Positions 1,369 through 7,257 of a stretch of 38,348 bases of DNA are shown in pieces. The DNA lies in IMG/VR virus record IMGVR_UViG_2609459797_000003. One strand, 5' to 3'. The first letter of the stretch is position 1, and each line of letters begins with the position of its first letter. The DNA is from a virus (taxonomy: Duplodnaviria; Heunggongvirae; Uroviricota; Caudoviricetes). The position numbers were made by a program, and so were the translations under genes. Under the pieces are notes generated by a model. It saw only the letters and a list, made by a program, of their open reading frames with translations. It was not told the origin of the DNA and ran no database searches.

Positions 1369-1444
1369 GCCGATATAGCTCAGTTGGTAGAGCAGCGCAT
1401 TCGTAATGCGAAGGTCGTAGGTTCGACTCCTATTATCGGCACCA
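1369..1444 (+). tRNA. thrW: tRNA-Thr (anticodon CGU)
   Basis: 76 nt 'GCCGATATAGCTCAGTTGGTAGAGCAGCGCATTCGTAATGCG...GGTTCGACTCCTATTATCGGCACCA': D-loop, T-loop GGTTCGA, CCA end, anticodon CGT in 'TTCGTAATG'. Confidence 0.95.
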
Positions 1445-1458
1445 TTTAAATCAATAAG

Positions 1459-2622
1459 TTACACATCATTAGTACCTTCCTTATTTTTTGACTGGGACAA
1501 ATTTGGGACCGATGGGTTCAGGATCGAGTCTATTTGCCGTGCGTGTTCGGTAAGGTGATTAGGTGCAAGGTGAGCATATCGACGAACCATTTCGATAGAC
1601 TCCCAGCCTCCCATTTCCTGTAACACTGACAACGGGACTCCGGCTTGAACCAGCCAACTTGCCCAGGTGTGTCTCAAGTCGTGAAATCTGAAATCATCAA
1701 TACCAGCCCGTCTCAGCGCCGCTTTCCAGGCTGTGTTTGCGTCATACCGCATCTTCCTTACTGTTGGCGCTTTCGTTCCGTCTGGTTTGGTACAGCTTTC
1801 CTTGTACACAAATACCCAACGGTGATGATTCCCGATTTGTTTTTTCAAAACGCGACATGCAGTATCATTCAGCGCAACGCCGATTGCGCGGTTTGATTTA
1901 CTCTCTTCTGGGTTTATCCATGCCACCCGGCGCTGCATATCTATTTGTTGCCATTCAAGGTTGATGATGTTCGAGCGTCTTAAGCCTGTTGCCAGTGCAA
2001 ATTCAACAACAGACTTTAATGGCTCCGGACATTCATCAATCAGCCTTTGTGCTTCATGGGGCTCCAGCCAGCGGATCCGTTTATTCTTTGGTTGAGGCAC
2101 TTTAATAATTGGTGCCTTATCCAGCATTTTCCATTCACGCTCTGCGGCTCTTAGTAGGGCCTTTATAAATGAAAGATGCGTAGCCTTCGTTGCAACGGAC
2201 GCTGGTTTTGGCGTGTATTCTGGAACAGGTTTCCCTTTTTTTCTGCATGCTTCTGCCCTGAGTTTCCAGTTTTCCTCATGACGCCGGTTCGTCATTTTCT
2301 GCATTGCTGAATAAATTTTTGATTCAGTAATGTCTCTTAGTTGCATTCCTGCGAAATGTTGAAGCCAGAATCCGATCCGGCTTTTGTCATCGTCCAGTGA
2401 TTTTTTATGTGCTTTCTCTTCAAGCCACCTGACACACGCTTCCTCGAACGTTATATCAGGTATTTCACCAAGTTTGCTGACCCGCCATGCTTCAGCCTTT
2501 AGCTTGTCATGGAGTTCTGTCGCCTGCCTTTTGTCCTTTGTTCCAAGAGACTGTTTAAATCTTTTACCGTTCGGCAATGTGAAACTGGCGTACCATATTT
2601 CACCTCTGCGGAAGAGTGACAT
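1459..2622 (-). CDS. phage tyrosine integrase
   Basis: 387 aa; N-terminus '[14 protein letters not shown]...' typical of prophage integrases; C-terminal '[39 protein letters not shown]' carries the R..H..R..Y catalytic signature; stop lies 14 bp from the tRNA 3' end. Confidence 0.9.
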
Positions 2623-2852
2623 TTTCTTTCCTCTGTTATGCCATCACCCGCGCTCACCTGGACAGTATGCAGCGGAGACTGAAGCGCCGCAATGCAGGCT
2701 TGTCGTGTTGTGAGGTAAGGAGATTTATTCTTAGTGGGATCTTTGCGTGTTGCCTGAAGACGCCCTGTGCGTATCCAGTTAATGGCAGTCGGTCTGGATA
2801 TCTTGAGAAAATGACAGGCCTCATCGAGTGTGAGGCTGTATGGCTCCATTAT
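2499..2852 (-). CDS. excisionase-like HTH DNA-binding protein (Xis/AlpA-like)
   Basis: Internal start '[31 protein letters not shown]' is a classic excisionase-type HTH; position directly upstream of int. Its 3' end overlaps the int start by ~120 nt in another frame, so the true C-terminus is uncertain. Confidence 0.6.
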
Positions 2853-3154
2853 TTCACCTCTTGCTGTGACATTGTTGAAAAATGGATACCAGCTCGTTGC
2901 TGCCAGACGATCCAACCGAGAGTCATATCCCATGCCATGTATTCGTTATCGCCGTTTTTTGCTCTCCGACGATCTACTAAGTCACCGAAACGCTTTTCCA
3001 TGAATAATTCATAAGCTTCGCGTTCATCTGGTTCTACTTCCAGAGATAGGAGTGCGATTTCATAAGCACGGCGCTCAATATCGTCTCGCACGTCAAGGCT
3101 GCTGATACGCTCTTTAATTTCTTTAATCAGTTCTTTGTCGGTAAAAGTGGTCAT
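2849..3154 (-). CDS. hypothetical early-left phage protein (YfdT-like position)
   Basis: 101 aa ORF, ATGA overlap with xis start, co-oriented in early-left operon; acidic small protein, no recognised domain. Confidence 0.5.
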   Translation of the reverse strand: MTTFTDKELIKEIKERISSLDVRDDIERRAYEIALLSLEVEPDEREAYELFMEKRFGDLVDRRRAKNGDNEYMAWDMTLGWIVWQQRAGIHFSTMSQQEVK

Positions 3155-3516
3155 TATGCTCCAGCCTCCGGTGCTTTTGGCATTACTGCCCAGTGAGTGA
3201 TATTGACGTTTTCAAGGTCCCCGACCTGAAATGTCCACTGCCATTCTCCGGTTTCTTTTTGTCCCCAGGTGTACCAGAGAGAACGCCAGCCAATTAGCCA
3301 GCCTTCTCCGTTAGCATCGAATAACAAAACACTTTCATTTGCTGGTGGCAGTTCAGTTGACACTGGTATTACTTTGTTTTCCTGTGCTGCACATTTAGCT
3401 TCAAGCGCATCGAATTTACGCACCAGGTATTCAGCATCTGTTTCATTTACTTTCAGATCTCGCGGTACACATCTCCCACGAAGAAACCCTTCCATTTCGA
3501 AAACATTCATGCGCAT
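3154..3516 (-). CDS. hypothetical phage protein (Trp-rich C-terminus, DUF551-like)
   Basis: 120 aa ORF tightly packed in operon; 'GWLIGWRSLWYTWGQKETGEWQW' Trp-rich tail seen in prophage DUF551-type proteins. Confidence 0.5.
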   Translation of the reverse strand: MRMNVFEMEGFLRGRCVPRDLKVNETDAEYLVRKFDALEAKCAAQENKVIPVSTELPPANESVLLFDANGEGWLIGWRSLWYTWGQKETGEWQWTFQVGDLENVNITHWAVMPKAPEAGA

Positions 3517-4043
3517 TTGCGTAACTCCGATAACTCGTTAAAGCGTTCCATAAACATCCCGTAGGCATGGCCCGGTGCCAGTGGAATCACGTTGAACATT
3601 TCTGTTGCCGGGATACCTTCCAGTACAGGCCAGAAAGAGCCATCATCAAGCCCGAGATCGCGGCGTTCGGTTGCCAGCATGATGAGATCGGCATATTTCA
3701 CGGGCGTACTCATAACCGGGGGTAACCCGTATTTCTCACGGATTACGGCGTCTATTTTTTCTTCCATTTGTTTATAGTCAGGAAGAAGGCGTTTCAGTGG
3801 TGCGGGAATGTCCTGGCAATACGCTTCTGTTGCATCATGCATTAACGCTTCAAAAGCAAATTCCTGCGGCACCAGCTGGCTGCAAAGAACCGCATGTTGG
3901 GCGACGCTGTAGAAGTGCGAAAGATGACCGGCAAAGCGACAGATATTTGAAAGGGAAACCGCGATATCGTTAATATCGATGTCGTCTTTATTTATCCTGT
4001 CATAATAAAAATGCTTCCCGGAAAAAGTTTTAATAAATGACAT
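3507..4043 (-). CDS. HD-domain phosphohydrolase, 5'-deoxynucleotidase-like (YfdR/YfbR family)
   Basis: Start chosen at 'MSFIKTF' (GGAG Shine-Dalgarno 6 nt upstream on the minus strand). Motifs 'SVAQHA' and 'HDATEAY' match the H...HD metal-binding signature of HD-domain nucleotidases. Confidence 0.7.
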   Translation of the reverse strand: MSFIKTFSGKHFYYDRINKDDIDINDIAVSLSNICRFAGHLSHFYSVAQHAVLCSQLVPQEFAFEALMHDATEAYCQDIPAPLKRLLPDYKQMEEKIDAVIREKYGLPPVMSTPVKYADLIMLATERRDLGLDDGSFWPVLEGIPATEMFNVIPLAPGHAYGMFMERFNELSELRKCA

Positions 4044-5060: not shown

Positions 5061-5423
5061 TTAACGACCTGCTGCGCGGAGTTTTCCGTCAGGTTCACCG
5101 GCAAGAGTCAGTAACTGTCCCTGGTCTTCCTGCAGAATAGTCAGGCGACCACCGCGATTGACATACATCGGCGTTTCGGTGGTGTCTTCTTCGGAAATTT
5201 TCCCGCGGTTAGTCGGGCGAACATATGAGAGTTTGTGTTTGATTTTCACACGGTTCTCATCAAATGGTTCGATTTCCAGGTTGAGTGAGACCTTACCTTT
5301 GGTTTTCGTGTTCATCACACCGGAAGCGACTTCACTGAGAACTGCGCCGATTTTGGTTTCAAATACGCCGCCGTCCAGCTCCCCGATAAATGCCTGCACA
5401 TCAGTACTGCGTTCGCTAGCCAT
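5061..5423 (-). CDS. hypothetical phage protein (YfdP-like)
   Basis: Start chosen at 'MASERSTDVQAF' because of GAGGAG Shine-Dalgarno upstream ('gaggagcagcaaaATG' on the minus strand); the longer ORF in the track (to 5741) runs into a structured non-coding region. Confidence 0.55.
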   Translation of the reverse strand: MASERSTDVQAFIGELDGGVFETKIGAVLSEVASGVMNTKTKGKVSLNLEIEPFDENRVKIKHKLSYVRPTNRGKISEEDTTETPMYVNRGGRLTILQEDQGQLLTLAGEPDGKLRAAGR

Positions 5424-5860
5424 TTTGCTGCTCCTCATCATATCGACCCTGCAAGGCCGATTAGTTTCTCCACAAAACAGAGAAGAACACCTGCGGTGGC
5501 AGCCGCCCGGATGGATTGGGTTATGAGCCCGTCGTCCGGTGATGCTCTTCTCTGTTTTGTAAAAAGGACGGTACCAGCCGGAAGCAAGGGTACAAGCTGG
5601 TACCGCCAGGACTACACACAGCATAAAGTTGTGGTGCCGGGTGCCTCCCGGTGCCTGGCGAAGGTTGCACACCAGGCGGGTGGGTATCCACAGAAGGTCG
5701 ACTGTCAGCCTCAACCTTAACCCGCGTGCGCTGAGCCGCATTCACCACAACGCTAAGGATTCTCTTTGGTTGAAAATACTTAGCTGTTATGTGCCTGTCT
5801 TTTCACCACTTCAGGCTCGGTGGTATCCTTTTAAGCCCGTATACATAAAAGGAAAATCAA

Positions 5861-6106
5861 ATGACTTTTGATGAAAAAGAACTTGATAATGCAATTAATA
5901 AAATCATCGTAACGTCGCTCTTTTCCTGTCTCAGCGACACTCAGCAGAAACAGTTCTACGAATCGGCTTTCAACATGATCGAGCGTTGTTGTTTCTGCGA
6001 TGCCGACGAGTTACCTGAAAAAATCAGGAAACAGTTGGCTGATGCTCTTCGAGTGCGACTTTCTGACCAATTTTCTGAAATGTGCTCTCCGAATTTGGAC
6101 AAATAG
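5861..6106 (+). CDS. hypothetical 81-aa protein transcribed rightward, opposite to the early-left operon
   Basis: ATG preceded by 'aaaaggaaaatcaa' (AAGGA Shine-Dalgarno, ~7 nt spacing); Cys-rich 'ERCCFCDADELPEKIRKQLADALRVRL'. Confidence 0.45.
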   Translation: MTFDEKELDNAINKIIVTSLFSCLSDTQQKQFYESAFNMIERCCFCDADELPEKIRKQLADALRVRLSDQFSEMCSPNLDK

Positions 6107-6320
6107 AAAAAGGCCATTTCCATTCAGGGTCTGATGGAAATACTTCAGCCTGTTCCAAAGCACGGCGTAAAGAGAACACAACTCCAGCCATAATCTGATG
6201 TTTCCCATTGGTCCAGCTATCGCCGCTCTGATCTACAGGGGCGGCTATGTCGTATGACCAAACGACTTCACAGTTATTGTTTAAAATCTGGACTTTCATT
6301 TCATACACCTGCTTTAACAT
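6024..6320 (-). CDS. hypothetical first gene of early-left operon (uncertain)
   Basis: 98 aa ORF downstream of the putative OL/PL region; 3' end overlaps the convergent + strand gene by ~80 nt and contains a hairpin, so at least part may be non-coding. Confidence 0.3.
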   Translation of the reverse strand: MLKQVYEMKVQILNNNCEVVWSYDIAAPVDQSGDSWTNGKHQIMAGVVFSLRRALEQAEVFPSDPEWKWPFSICPNSESTFQKIGQKVALEEHQPTVS

Positions 6321-6416
6321 GAGTGCCTAGTGGCACAACATGACTCAACGAATCATCCTGGACTTCATATGCCCCAGGCGGCTACTTCGTGGGCGTCCTG
6401 CCTGTTCGTTGTTTCG

Positions 6417-6454
6417 CTTGGGTACATTATGTATCTCAAAGGTACATTGTCAAG
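6417..6454. promoter_or_regulatory. putative OL operator region (repeated GGTACA half-sites)
   Basis: 'cttgGGTACAttatgtatctcaaagGTACAttgtcaag' shares the GTACA half-site with the palindrome between repressor and cro. Confidence 0.4.
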
Positions 6455-6455
6455 T

Positions 6456-6479
6456 ATAAAAAAACCTGCCGAAGCAGGT
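6456..6479 (-). terminator. rho-independent terminator downstream of repressor gene
   Basis: Stem 'acctgc'/'gcaggt' with 'cgaa' tetraloop; the A-run 6456-6463 on + gives a U-tract on the minus-strand transcript immediately after the stem; 14 bp past the repressor stop. Confidence 0.55.
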
Positions 6480-6492
6480 TCATAAACATTGA

Positions 6493-7167
6493 TTAGGCTT
6501 TGATTTTGTATCTTCTTGGTTTTCCTGAGAAAATCACTGTACCAATTATAGAGCAATTACCGTTGATCTTAATGTAAGGCTCAGGCCAGTTTGGGTTTAA
6601 CGCTTTGAGATAACGCTGTGTCCCATCTTCTATCAACCTTTTGAAGGTGGTTTCACCTGTATCGTGCATCAATGCAATAACGTCGTCACCGTGGCAGGCA
6701 GGTACTTCAGGATCGACAAAAATCATGTCTCCCGGGCGGTACTCATCAATCATTGAATCACCTATCACCCGCAAGATATAAGTCATTTCCCCACAGGGTA
6801 CAGGGCAGGGATACGTTTCTGCTGTGCTCAAATCAACCTCAGAATATCCAACTTCTTTCCATGCTCCGGCCTGTACCCATGATATGACAGGGACTAATGT
6901 GATTTGTTTATTAGTGATTGAAACATCAGGTTTTTTTGTGATGTTCGTTGTCTGGTGTTCTTGATCGAGCCATCCGACAGGCAGGTCGAAACATTTTTCG
7001 ATGTGTCGTGCCATGCTGTCACCGATATTTTTAGTAGCACCATCTCCCATAAACCTGCTGGTCTGGGTTGGCTCGCGATCAATCATAGTGGCAAAGGAAG
7101 AATTCCCGCCAACACCATCTCTCAGTTTTCTGGCGTTAGACCGCCGGATGTCATGGATTGTTTTCAT
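6493..7167 (-). CDS. CI-like prophage repressor (HTH + S24 LexA-type peptidase domain)
   Basis: 224 aa; C-terminal 'ILRVIGDSMIDEYRPGDMIFVDPE...ALMHDTGETTFKRL' is the Ser/Lys autopeptidase signature of CI/LexA; divergent from a Cro-like gene. Confidence 0.85.
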   Translation of the reverse strand: MKTIHDIRRSNARKLRDGVGGNSSFATMIDREPTQTSRFMGDGATKNIGDSMARHIEKCFDLPVGWLDQEHQTTNITKKPDVSITNKQITLVPVISWVQAGAWKEVGYSEVDLSTAETYPCPVPCGEMTYILRVIGDSMIDEYRPGDMIFVDPEVPACHGDDVIALMHDTGETTFKRLIEDGTQRYLKALNPNWPEPYIKINGNCSIIGTVIFSGKPRRYKIKA

Positions 7168-7182
7168 AACGAAATTAAAACC

Positions 7183-7252
7183 CTTGTACCGTTAAGGTAC
7201 AAGTATCTTGAAGGTTCATTTCAATCATGTAATATGTACACCGGAGGTACAT
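7183..7252. promoter_or_regulatory. OR/PR region: operator palindrome plus sigma70-like promoter for cro
   Basis: Palindrome 'CTTGTACCgttaaGGTACAAG' (7183-7203, 8-bp arms); candidate -35 TTGAAG (7208-7213), 16-nt spacer, -10 TAATAT (7230-7235); second 'GTACAccggagGTACA' overlapping the GGAGG ribosome-binding site. Confidence 0.55.
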
Positions 7253-7257
7253 ATTGT

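Follow-up and report, generated by a model that had tools for sequence, protein, structure and literature searches.

What is encoded by a GC-rich stretch of phage DNA that is crowded with nested inverted repeats but offers no convincing open reading frame (ORF)? The question was raised by positions 5424-5860 of a 38,348-nucleotide (nt) Caudoviricetes sequence, IMG/VR virus record IMGVR_UViG_2609459797_000003, the whole of which is called the window here. The region belongs to an untranslated spacer of ~600 nt that separates orf33 from yfdP in the early-left operon, transcribed leftward from the promoter PL, and is not primarily the leader of the small rightward ORF on its other side, one of the roles considered in the initial annotation. 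Its minus strand is predicted to specify a structured RNA that, judged by sequence comparison, is a divergent relative of the STnc100/PasD RNAs. We assign it to a promoter-less subfamily, termed B-type below, rather than to the family as a plain member, because it scores below the Rfam threshold, has no strong promoter of its own and is found in another genomic niche.

The three inverted repeats described in the initial annotation exist at, or 1-2 nt from, the positions given there. The first has 25-nt arms (5472-5496 and 5536-5560) that are 84% complementary with a perfect core of 15 bp, although 39 nt rather than ~47 nt separate them. The second is a perfect 10-bp repeat (5569-5578 with 5596-5605, 17 nt between the arms), and its GGTACCAGC...GCTGGTACC sequence is reread here as an intrinsic terminator on the minus strand. 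Both halves of the third, GCCAGG (5606-5611) and CCTGGC (5654-5659), are present, but their pairing is probably not native: it competes with the P4 hairpin, and comparative data favor the pairing of 5653-5660 with 5670-5677 (P4). The longest perfect inverted repeat of the region, 15 bp, was never reached in 300 dinucleotide shuffles (mean 7.4, maximum 11). Folding of both strands gave -181.7 kcal/mol for the minus strand (z = -6.3 to -6.75) and -159.5 kcal/mol for the plus strand (z = -3.5); the core domain has a GC content of 0.63. We took the minus strand to be the functional one because of its G.U pairs, the strand asymmetry of 22 kcal/mol, the orientation of the matching Rfam model and the U-run of the terminator. 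The region does hold more structure than a simple promoter or terminator, as first proposed, and a structured 5' untranslated region and a small RNA (sRNA) are the two of the suggested roles that survive.

The non-coding status of the region was also borne out. A Pfam search of the ORFs inside it returned no match, the Prokaryotic Genome Annotation Pipeline (PGAP) reports only a frameshifted hypothetical protein, and homologous nucleotides of the window and of phage ST64B lie in different reading frames owing to 1-nt indels. The Pfam result and the unconserved frames led us to reject protein coding. A 226-codon ORF (5061-5741, minus strand) does stay open in the yfdP frame across the structured region; this frame is not kept in ST64B or in the e14 copy of Escherichia coli K-12 and is therefore apparently a coincidence of GC-rich sequence.

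The Rfam scan returned a single relevant match, a full-length one to STnc100 (RF02076, model positions 1-206) on the minus strand at 5773-5558. Its score of 41.4 bits (E = 2e-7 in a 901-nt search, 8.5e-6 over the whole window) lies below the gathering score of 47. The consensus architecture of STnc100 is present in order, with P1 (GGUGAAU...CACC), H1, an internal hairpin, the CCGGGAGGCACCCGG hairpin on P1 and a 3' intrinsic terminator, and so is the location in an enterobacterial prophage that characterizes STnc100 and PasD. The 19-mer CCGGGAGGCACCCGGCACC had matches in >120 IMG/VR contigs, and the 20-mer ACCGGGAGGCACCCGGCACC turned up across Enterobacterales in many genera, among them Escherichia, Salmonella, Klebsiella, Enterobacter, Kosakonia, Pantoea, Erwinia, and Rahnella, often with two to three family copies per contig. 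The same architecture recurs in 211 unique copies, which split into two types by H1. A-type copies carry the H1 of classical STnc100 (GAAUCCCCC...; copy L083 scores 72 bits), while B-type copies, with H1 GAAUGCGGCUCAGCGCACGCGG as in the window, reach 34-42 bits in Rfam. Intrinsic terminators were found within 160 nt of ~70% of the 211 copies.

Compensatory changes across homologous prophages, the check proposed at the outset, were found both in P1 and in a pseudoknot. MAFFT/RNAalifold analysis of the B-type copies recovered only P1, H1, and H5, the middle of the alignment being variable in length. In P1, three columns showed compensatory changes (GC/AU, UA/GC/UG, and UA/CG) among 20 B-type sequences. 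The invariance of H5 in the collected set arises partly by construction, H5 having served as a search query; the independently found Qin copy of K-12 has CCUGG/CCAGG where the window has CCGGG/CCCGG, a compensatory change. Because of the length-variable middle, the pseudoknot was tested with a custom script. At least six contiguous pairs could form in 84% of 173 distinct domains, compared with 34-41% in two null sets, and 93 distinct sequence pairs were involved. In 80 clusters, non-redundant at 80% similarity, the pseudoknot was present in 79% compared with 26% and 36% in the nulls. Co-varying partners included AAGGUUG/CAACCUU, AAGGCUG/CAGCCUU, UGGUUAU/AUAACCA, AGACUGACAA/UUGUCAGUCU, CAGUUAA/UUAACUG, and CCAGUC/GACUGG; we did not see this pseudoknot marked in the nested structure line printed by Rfam. 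Junctions and loops are strongly conserved in sequence, and the helices covary. A covariance model built from a B-type seed only (R1) recovered the Qin and e14 copies, neither of them in the seed, with 88 and 94 bits.

The two types also occupy different places. A-type copies were found in late regions. Some, for example, lie between Q and holin genes; in contig L017, a tandem array of three occupies 1.4 kb of non-coding sequence (2161-3544, minus strand) upstream of a gene for a sialate-esterase-like protein, and in HK639 an A-type copy lies between annotated late-region terminators (L257, 44807-44925, plus strand). B-type copies lie downstream of cI, co-oriented with and before early-left genes: before a yfdP homologue in ST64B, before kil in phiES15, and in the early-left operon of Pantoea AH07. 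A more divergent copy in mEp460 and Stx2 phages stands in front of the same terminator as in the window. In the P1-like Salmonella phage SJ46, the B-type element follows two tRNA genes and precedes tciA by 36 nt. Rfam detected three tRNA genes in this phage (L005, 2051-2201 and 3357-3429), two of them under "hypothetical protein" coding sequences (CDSs) upstream of the B-type element and tciA. The fold has a second niche, promoter-less and inside early-left operons, before genes of the kil, dicB, and yfdP kinds.

Two of the B-type copies are in K-12. In Qin, P1 has 18 bp with two G.U pairs and ends ~25 nt before the dicB start codon. The e14 copy carries the whole module of domain, linker, terminator, and long hairpin, as well as the candidate promoter seen at 5774-5802 of the window. 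It has a 1-nt deletion in H5, and the GUG start of ymfH falls inside a strand of P1. We conclude that ymfH is probably not a protein gene and that its annotation may need revision. A genome-wide screen (bioRxiv 10.1101/2020.06.22.160242) lists ymfH over-expression among the triggers of the retron-Sen2 RcaT toxin. With two unannotated copies in K-12, the function of the element is directly testable in the best-studied bacterium.

The coordinates of the features in the window and of the K-12 copies are given in Table 1. The Rfam alignment to STnc100 starts at 5773, within the range in which the candidate promoter would start transcription. The flanking hairpin that comes next holds a degenerate boxA-like stretch (AAUCCUUAGC) in its 3' arm. 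In the linker, UGCUGUGU is conserved across the SfV, ST64B, phiES15, L019, L066, and L078 types. The predicted terminator consists of a GC-rich stem (5567-5607) followed by UUUUU (5561-5565) on the minus strand and aligns to the terminator of the STnc100 model; the automated scan missed it because its loop exceeds the 8-nt limit of that scan. The long hairpin is kept in ST64B with one compensatory change from G-C to A-U and several wobble changes, and is a candidate ribonuclease (RNase) III or leader element.

Table 1. Features of the structured spacer and its surroundings in the window, in leftward order, followed by the two copies in E. coli K-12.
Feature	Position	Strand	Description
cI	6493-7167	minus	
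cI terminator	6462-6481	minus	directly precedes PL
PL promoter	6426-6453	minus	TTGACA-16-CATAAT; 11/12 match, near-consensus
PL-leader RNA motif	6346-6411	minus	start of PL transcript; helix CAACGAA/UUCGUUG, invariant AGGCAGGACGCCCACGAAGUAGCCGC, hairpin with 5 covarying pairs, GAUGA
orf33 (phrog_3195)	6024-6320	minus	
Candidate weak sigma-70 promoter	5774-5802	minus	AAGACA-17-TATTTT, read from sequence; 8/12; RNA start would be ~5767-5773
5' flanking hairpin	5752-5784	minus	GCUAAGUAUUUUC...GAGAAUCCUUAGC; inverted repeat with 13-nt arms, 85%; in minimum-free-energy fold
Core structured domain	5628-5751	minus	~125 nt, B-type STnc100/PasD-like fold; Rfam, covariation, model R1
P1 closing helix	5743-5751 with 5628-5636	minus	GUUGUGGUG with CACCACAAC; perfect 9 bp
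H1 hairpin	5724-5739	minus	
Pseudoknot	5712-5718 with 5661-5667	minus	AAGGUUG with CAACCUU; CAACCUU in P4 loop
P4 hairpin	5670-5677 with 5653-5660	minus	
H5 hairpin	5637-5651	minus	CCGGG-AGGCA-CCCGG (CCGGGAGGCACCCGG hairpin); stacks on P1
Linker	5608-5627	minus	UUUAUGCUGUGUGUAGUCCU; single-stranded, 20 nt; candidate seed or Hfq-contact region
Intrinsic (Rho-independent) terminator	5561-5607	minus	12-bp stem GGCGGUACCAGC/GCUGGUACCGUC, ~17-nt loop, C-UUUUU; repeat and folds
Long hairpin	5472-5560	minus	~20-bp stem, conserved 39-nt apical region; between terminator and yfdP ribosome-binding site
yfdP ribosome-binding site and start	5423-5440	minus	GAGGAG and ATG start (5423-5421)
yfdP	5061-5423	minus	followed by yfdQ, yfdR, onward to xis and int
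tRNA-Thr	1369-1441		prophage lies at this gene
Qin copy	L251:2452-2584 = NC_000913 ~1,649,451-1,649,583	plus	unannotated, B-type; fills spacer from dicF terminator to dicB
e14 copy	L259:5260-5387 = NC_000913 1,201,259-1,201,386	minus	R1 93.9 bits; under CDS ymfH (b1142)

From this anatomy we tentatively favor, as a reading that comes close to probable but stops short of it, a leftward-read RNA of three modules, namely the pseudoknotted domain, the linker with its terminator, and the hairpin leader, which together would form an operon-embedded structured RNA and a termination checkpoint. RNA polymerase coming from PL, or from the weak local promoter, would transcribe the domain and stop at the terminator. 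A start at the local promoter would release a structured RNA of ~200 nt which, by analogy with PasD and STnc100, may associate with Hfq and act by base-pairing with targets in trans. The terminator would keep yfdP, yfdQ, yfdR, and the genes onward to xis and int silent unless polymerase becomes termination-resistant after induction. The structure with its covariation, the homology, the anatomy of the terminator and the place in the operon come from the present data, whereas expression, the 5' end, Hfq binding, targets in trans and the way past the terminator are inferred. PasD1 and PasD2 of enteropathogenic E. coli are abundant, Hfq-dependent, Northern-validated sRNAs that, like their targets, were identified by ligating and sequencing interacting RNAs (RIL-seq; PMC8550237). 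A 2026 preprint relates PasD to STnc100 by structure and describes the function of Pas sRNAs as not elucidated (10.64898/2026.05.13.724894).

Several observations weigh against this account, beginning with the STnc100 score below the gathering threshold. A promoter matching at least 9/12 positions, the threshold of our promoter scan, with its +1 at P1 was found for 34/177 A-type copies compared with 0.75% of control positions, while none of the 34 B-type copies had one adjoining P1. Since no B-type copy has such a promoter and that of the window reaches only 8/12, a free-standing sRNA gene is doubtful. In 12 of the 34 B-type copies there is no terminator and the element stands immediately ahead of a start codon (that of dicB or tciA, for example), which fits better with a cis-acting leader than with an sRNA. 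A conserved pseudoknotted fold of 125 nt also far exceeds what an Hfq-dependent sRNA needs and implies a specific partner. Finally, the resemblance to the sRNA DicF has limits. The DicF model (RF00039) gave 15.9 bits (E = 1.5) against a gathering score of 48, and RNAduplex energies for DicF-like targeting of ftsZ were no better than those of shuffles, a test in which the DicF positive control was likewise not significant.

These points lead to the first alternative, which we regard as possible though unlikely: the element could be a cis-acting sensor or leader, riboswitch-like or factor-binding, whose domain serves as an aptamer for a host factor or small molecule and sets termination or translation of the next gene. 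It would gate toxic or accessory prophage genes. On this view, the PasD and STnc100 sRNAs would be leader transcripts cut short by termination, as has been the case for other RNAs that were initially listed as sRNAs. One domain on different expression platforms is what the copies display. A terminator follows after ~20 nt in the window, ST64B, and phiES15, while Qin (dicB), SJ46 (tciA), L140, and L141 have no terminator but instead a ribosome-binding site with a start codon within 25-66 nt. The domain is always co-oriented with the next ORF and 5' of it, B-type copies never have their own promoter, A-type copies sit between a promoter and holin or esterase genes, and the conservation of junctions and loops beside covarying helices would suit an aptamer. 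An alternative pairing of CGCCAGG (5654-5660) with CCUGGCG (5606-5612), at the base of the terminator, would form a possible antiterminator. However, this pairing exists in the SfV type and is conserved in neither ST64B nor phiES15, and we rejected it as a riboswitch-style antiterminator. Moreover, the downstream genes (yfdP, kil, dicB, tciA, holin, esterase) share no common function, P1 does not sequester the ribosome-binding site in the translational cases, and constitutive read-through into lysis genes would kill lysogens. Slightly harder still to credit is the broader proposal that the shared STnc100/PasD/B-type domain is a cis sensor of a conserved host factor or metabolite and that, in hundreds of enterobacterial prophages, it gates toxic genes (kil, dicB, holins, and early-left genes, for instance) by attenuation or translation. 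If it holds, the K-12 dicB leader and "ymfH" would be unrecognized copies of the sensor and the retron triggering by ymfH would be an RNA effect.

We find it improbable that the domain and the 20-bp hairpin form an RNA processing or stability module, acting as 5' protective elements or as determinants for RNase III or RNase E that, once the polycistronic PL transcript has been cleaved, define and stabilize the ends of an sRNA or of the downstream mRNA (yfdP and following genes, dicB, tciA). In A-type copies that have a promoter, +1 coincides with the beginning of P1; in Qin, L140, and L141, P1 is extended to 18-22 bp, the length of an RNase III substrate. The 20-bp duplex at 5472-5560 and the position of the SJ46 element after tRNA genes that need processing agree with such a role as well. 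A simple hairpin would nevertheless suffice for 5' protection, which leaves the conserved pseudoknot and the loops, near-invariant across genera, unexplained.

A processive antitermination site akin to nut or put, in which a boxA-like sequence and the domain would load Nus factors or bind RNA polymerase and allow read-through without N, is to our mind a poor prospect. N, cII, and cIII are reported missing in SfV, SfII, and SfIV (PMC3851460), so the terminator in the PL operon of SfV-type phages must be handled by something else. The order of promoter, first gene, element, terminator, and operon mirrors the lambda arrangement PR-cro-nutR-tR1, our comparison for this PL operon. In many B-type copies, UGCUCU(U/C), which resembles the boxA of rrn operons and lambda, lies 3-4 nt upstream of P1 (SJ46 [L005], with UGCUCUUUCC; mEp460, L041, L078, L099, L210, L249), and in copies with an extended P1 the extension takes its place. 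In the window, however, the boxA-like stretch AAUCCUUAGC is degenerate and enclosed in a hairpin. Comparison with the put RNAs of HK022 and HK639 revealed no similarity in sequence. Transcripts of A-type relatives end at the terminators of these copies and have been seen as discrete sRNAs in lysogens; some of these relatives lie a short way upstream of holin genes, a location at which constitutive antitermination would be lethal.

A separate motif close to PL is also better placed for that task. This PL-leader motif lies 400-1000 nt upstream of 18/34 B-type copies compared with 1/200 A-type copies, and just downstream of cI/PL in Yersinia YeP2, Pantoea AH07, Pectobacterium ZF40, Salmonella SPN3UB, and ST64B. 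It had no Rfam match and is not put by sequence; the HK022 and HK639 put RNAs share with it only ACGAAC and GGAUGA. We consider it a candidate for a leader element or for one that allows antitermination independent of N. For the question of how SfV-type phages lacking N pass the terminator of the PL operon, two concrete candidate RNAs are now at hand.

A DNA-level site (for recombination, a mosaic boundary or protein binding, two of which had been proposed initially) or a genuine ORF (one like YmfH, or one extending YfdP at its N terminus) is very improbable: module boundaries do coincide with the homology breakpoints at ~5608 and ~5825, K-12 annotates the e14 copy as ymfH, and the 226-codon ORF is open, but the G.U pairs and strand asymmetry point to RNA, covariation, for which DNA sites have no need, keeps RNA pairs including wobble pairs that are mismatched in the other strand, Pfam and PGAP (frameshift) argue against a protein, and the frames differ between the window and ST64B, as well as in e14 by its 1-nt deletion.

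Across the region, the window is 99.5% identical to Shigella phage SfV; as a whole it represents an SfV-like prophage located at tRNA-Thr. The 437 bases of the region are present at ≥90% identity in 2786/5426 complete E. coli genomes. An operator (ATGTACC..GATACAT) overlaps PL, its half-sites matching those in the right operator (OR) region at 7183-7253, and the element lies ~650 nt downstream of PL. K-12 yfdP is identical from its ribosome-binding site onward, which is where homology begins in CPS-53; the element is not present in the yfdO-yfdP spacer there. On the other strand, an 81-aa rightward ORF (phrog_3311, 5861-6106), unannotated in SfV and by PGAP, converges with orf33 with an 83-nt overlap. 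The promoter scan found no promoter for it. The e14 genes ymfI and ymfJ have the same convergent layout as this ORF and orf33 with no sequence similarity. About 30 nt upstream of the 81-aa ORF, a hairpin ACCACTTCAGGCTCGGTGGT followed by ATCCTTTTAA (5805-5834, plus strand) has the look of a plus-strand terminator and lies near ~5825, where homology to SfII, SfIV, and PhiR29 stops. In ST64B, an isrK/C4-type RNA scoring 64 bits, above the gathering score, was found in the immunity-right region (L007:19-95, minus strand).

How does the element compare with known systems? Mimicry of rRNA or of a ribosomal-protein site was rejected, as only chance 9-mers match the rrnH operon. With lambda and rrn nut sites, many B-type copies share a boxA-like pyrimidine stretch 5' of a stem-closed structure before a terminator. 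However, a lambda-type nut site has a boxA (CGCUCUUA/UGCUCUUUAACAA) followed by an N-bound boxB hairpin, whereas the window has the degenerate AAUCCUUAGC, its "boxB" would be a pseudoknotted domain of 125 nt, and the phage is without N. Like HK022 and HK639 put RNAs, the element is a structured RNA in an early operon of a lambdoid phage lacking N, upstream of terminators. Unlike the element, put RNAs are ~70 nt long, have two stems and lie at +1 of PL, and there is no topological similarity. Assignment to the put family was rejected, no convincing similarity to HK022 putL/putR or the annotated HK639 putL-like RNA having been found and the signature ..UAAACCAUGCGUCGG..CGGCAAU being absent.

The sRNA DicF is produced by processing from the early-left dicBF operon (bioRxiv 10.1101/2023.04.14.536235). 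Like the element, DicF forms part of a lambdoid prophage's early-left operon, ends at an intrinsic terminator and has accessory or toxic genes downstream; in K-12 it is followed directly by a B-type domain. The linker and terminator of the window share UGGCGGUA(U/C)CAG(U/C)UU..UAC with DicF. Their local alignment scored 39 compared with 18.7 ± 3.8 for shuffles, 2/2000 of which reached 39, and it is the best site in the window. The pairing partners in the two terminators differ, DicF has no 125-nt domain, and complementarity to ftsZ could not be demonstrated for the window element.

The closest relatives are STnc100 and PasD. The H1 sequences differ (GCGGCUCAGCGCACGC in the window, CCCCCUGUGCGGAGGGG in STnc100), the window element has no strong promoter of its own and scores below the threshold, and it lies in the PL operon, whereas its relatives occupy late regions near Q, stx, esterase or holin genes; in Stx2 phages, STnc100 copies are found just downstream of stx2B (PMC12370729). 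A literature search with the exact hairpin sequence on either strand returned nothing. As far as we found, the following are new: the pseudoknot seen across the family, the early-left niche of the B-type and both K-12 copies, together with the probable mis-annotation of ymfH. What unites the window element with STnc100 and PasD is the same fold, the same order of elements, an end-to-end alignment and an enterobacterial prophage setting, and the family extends well beyond the copies recovered at the threshold of Rfam.

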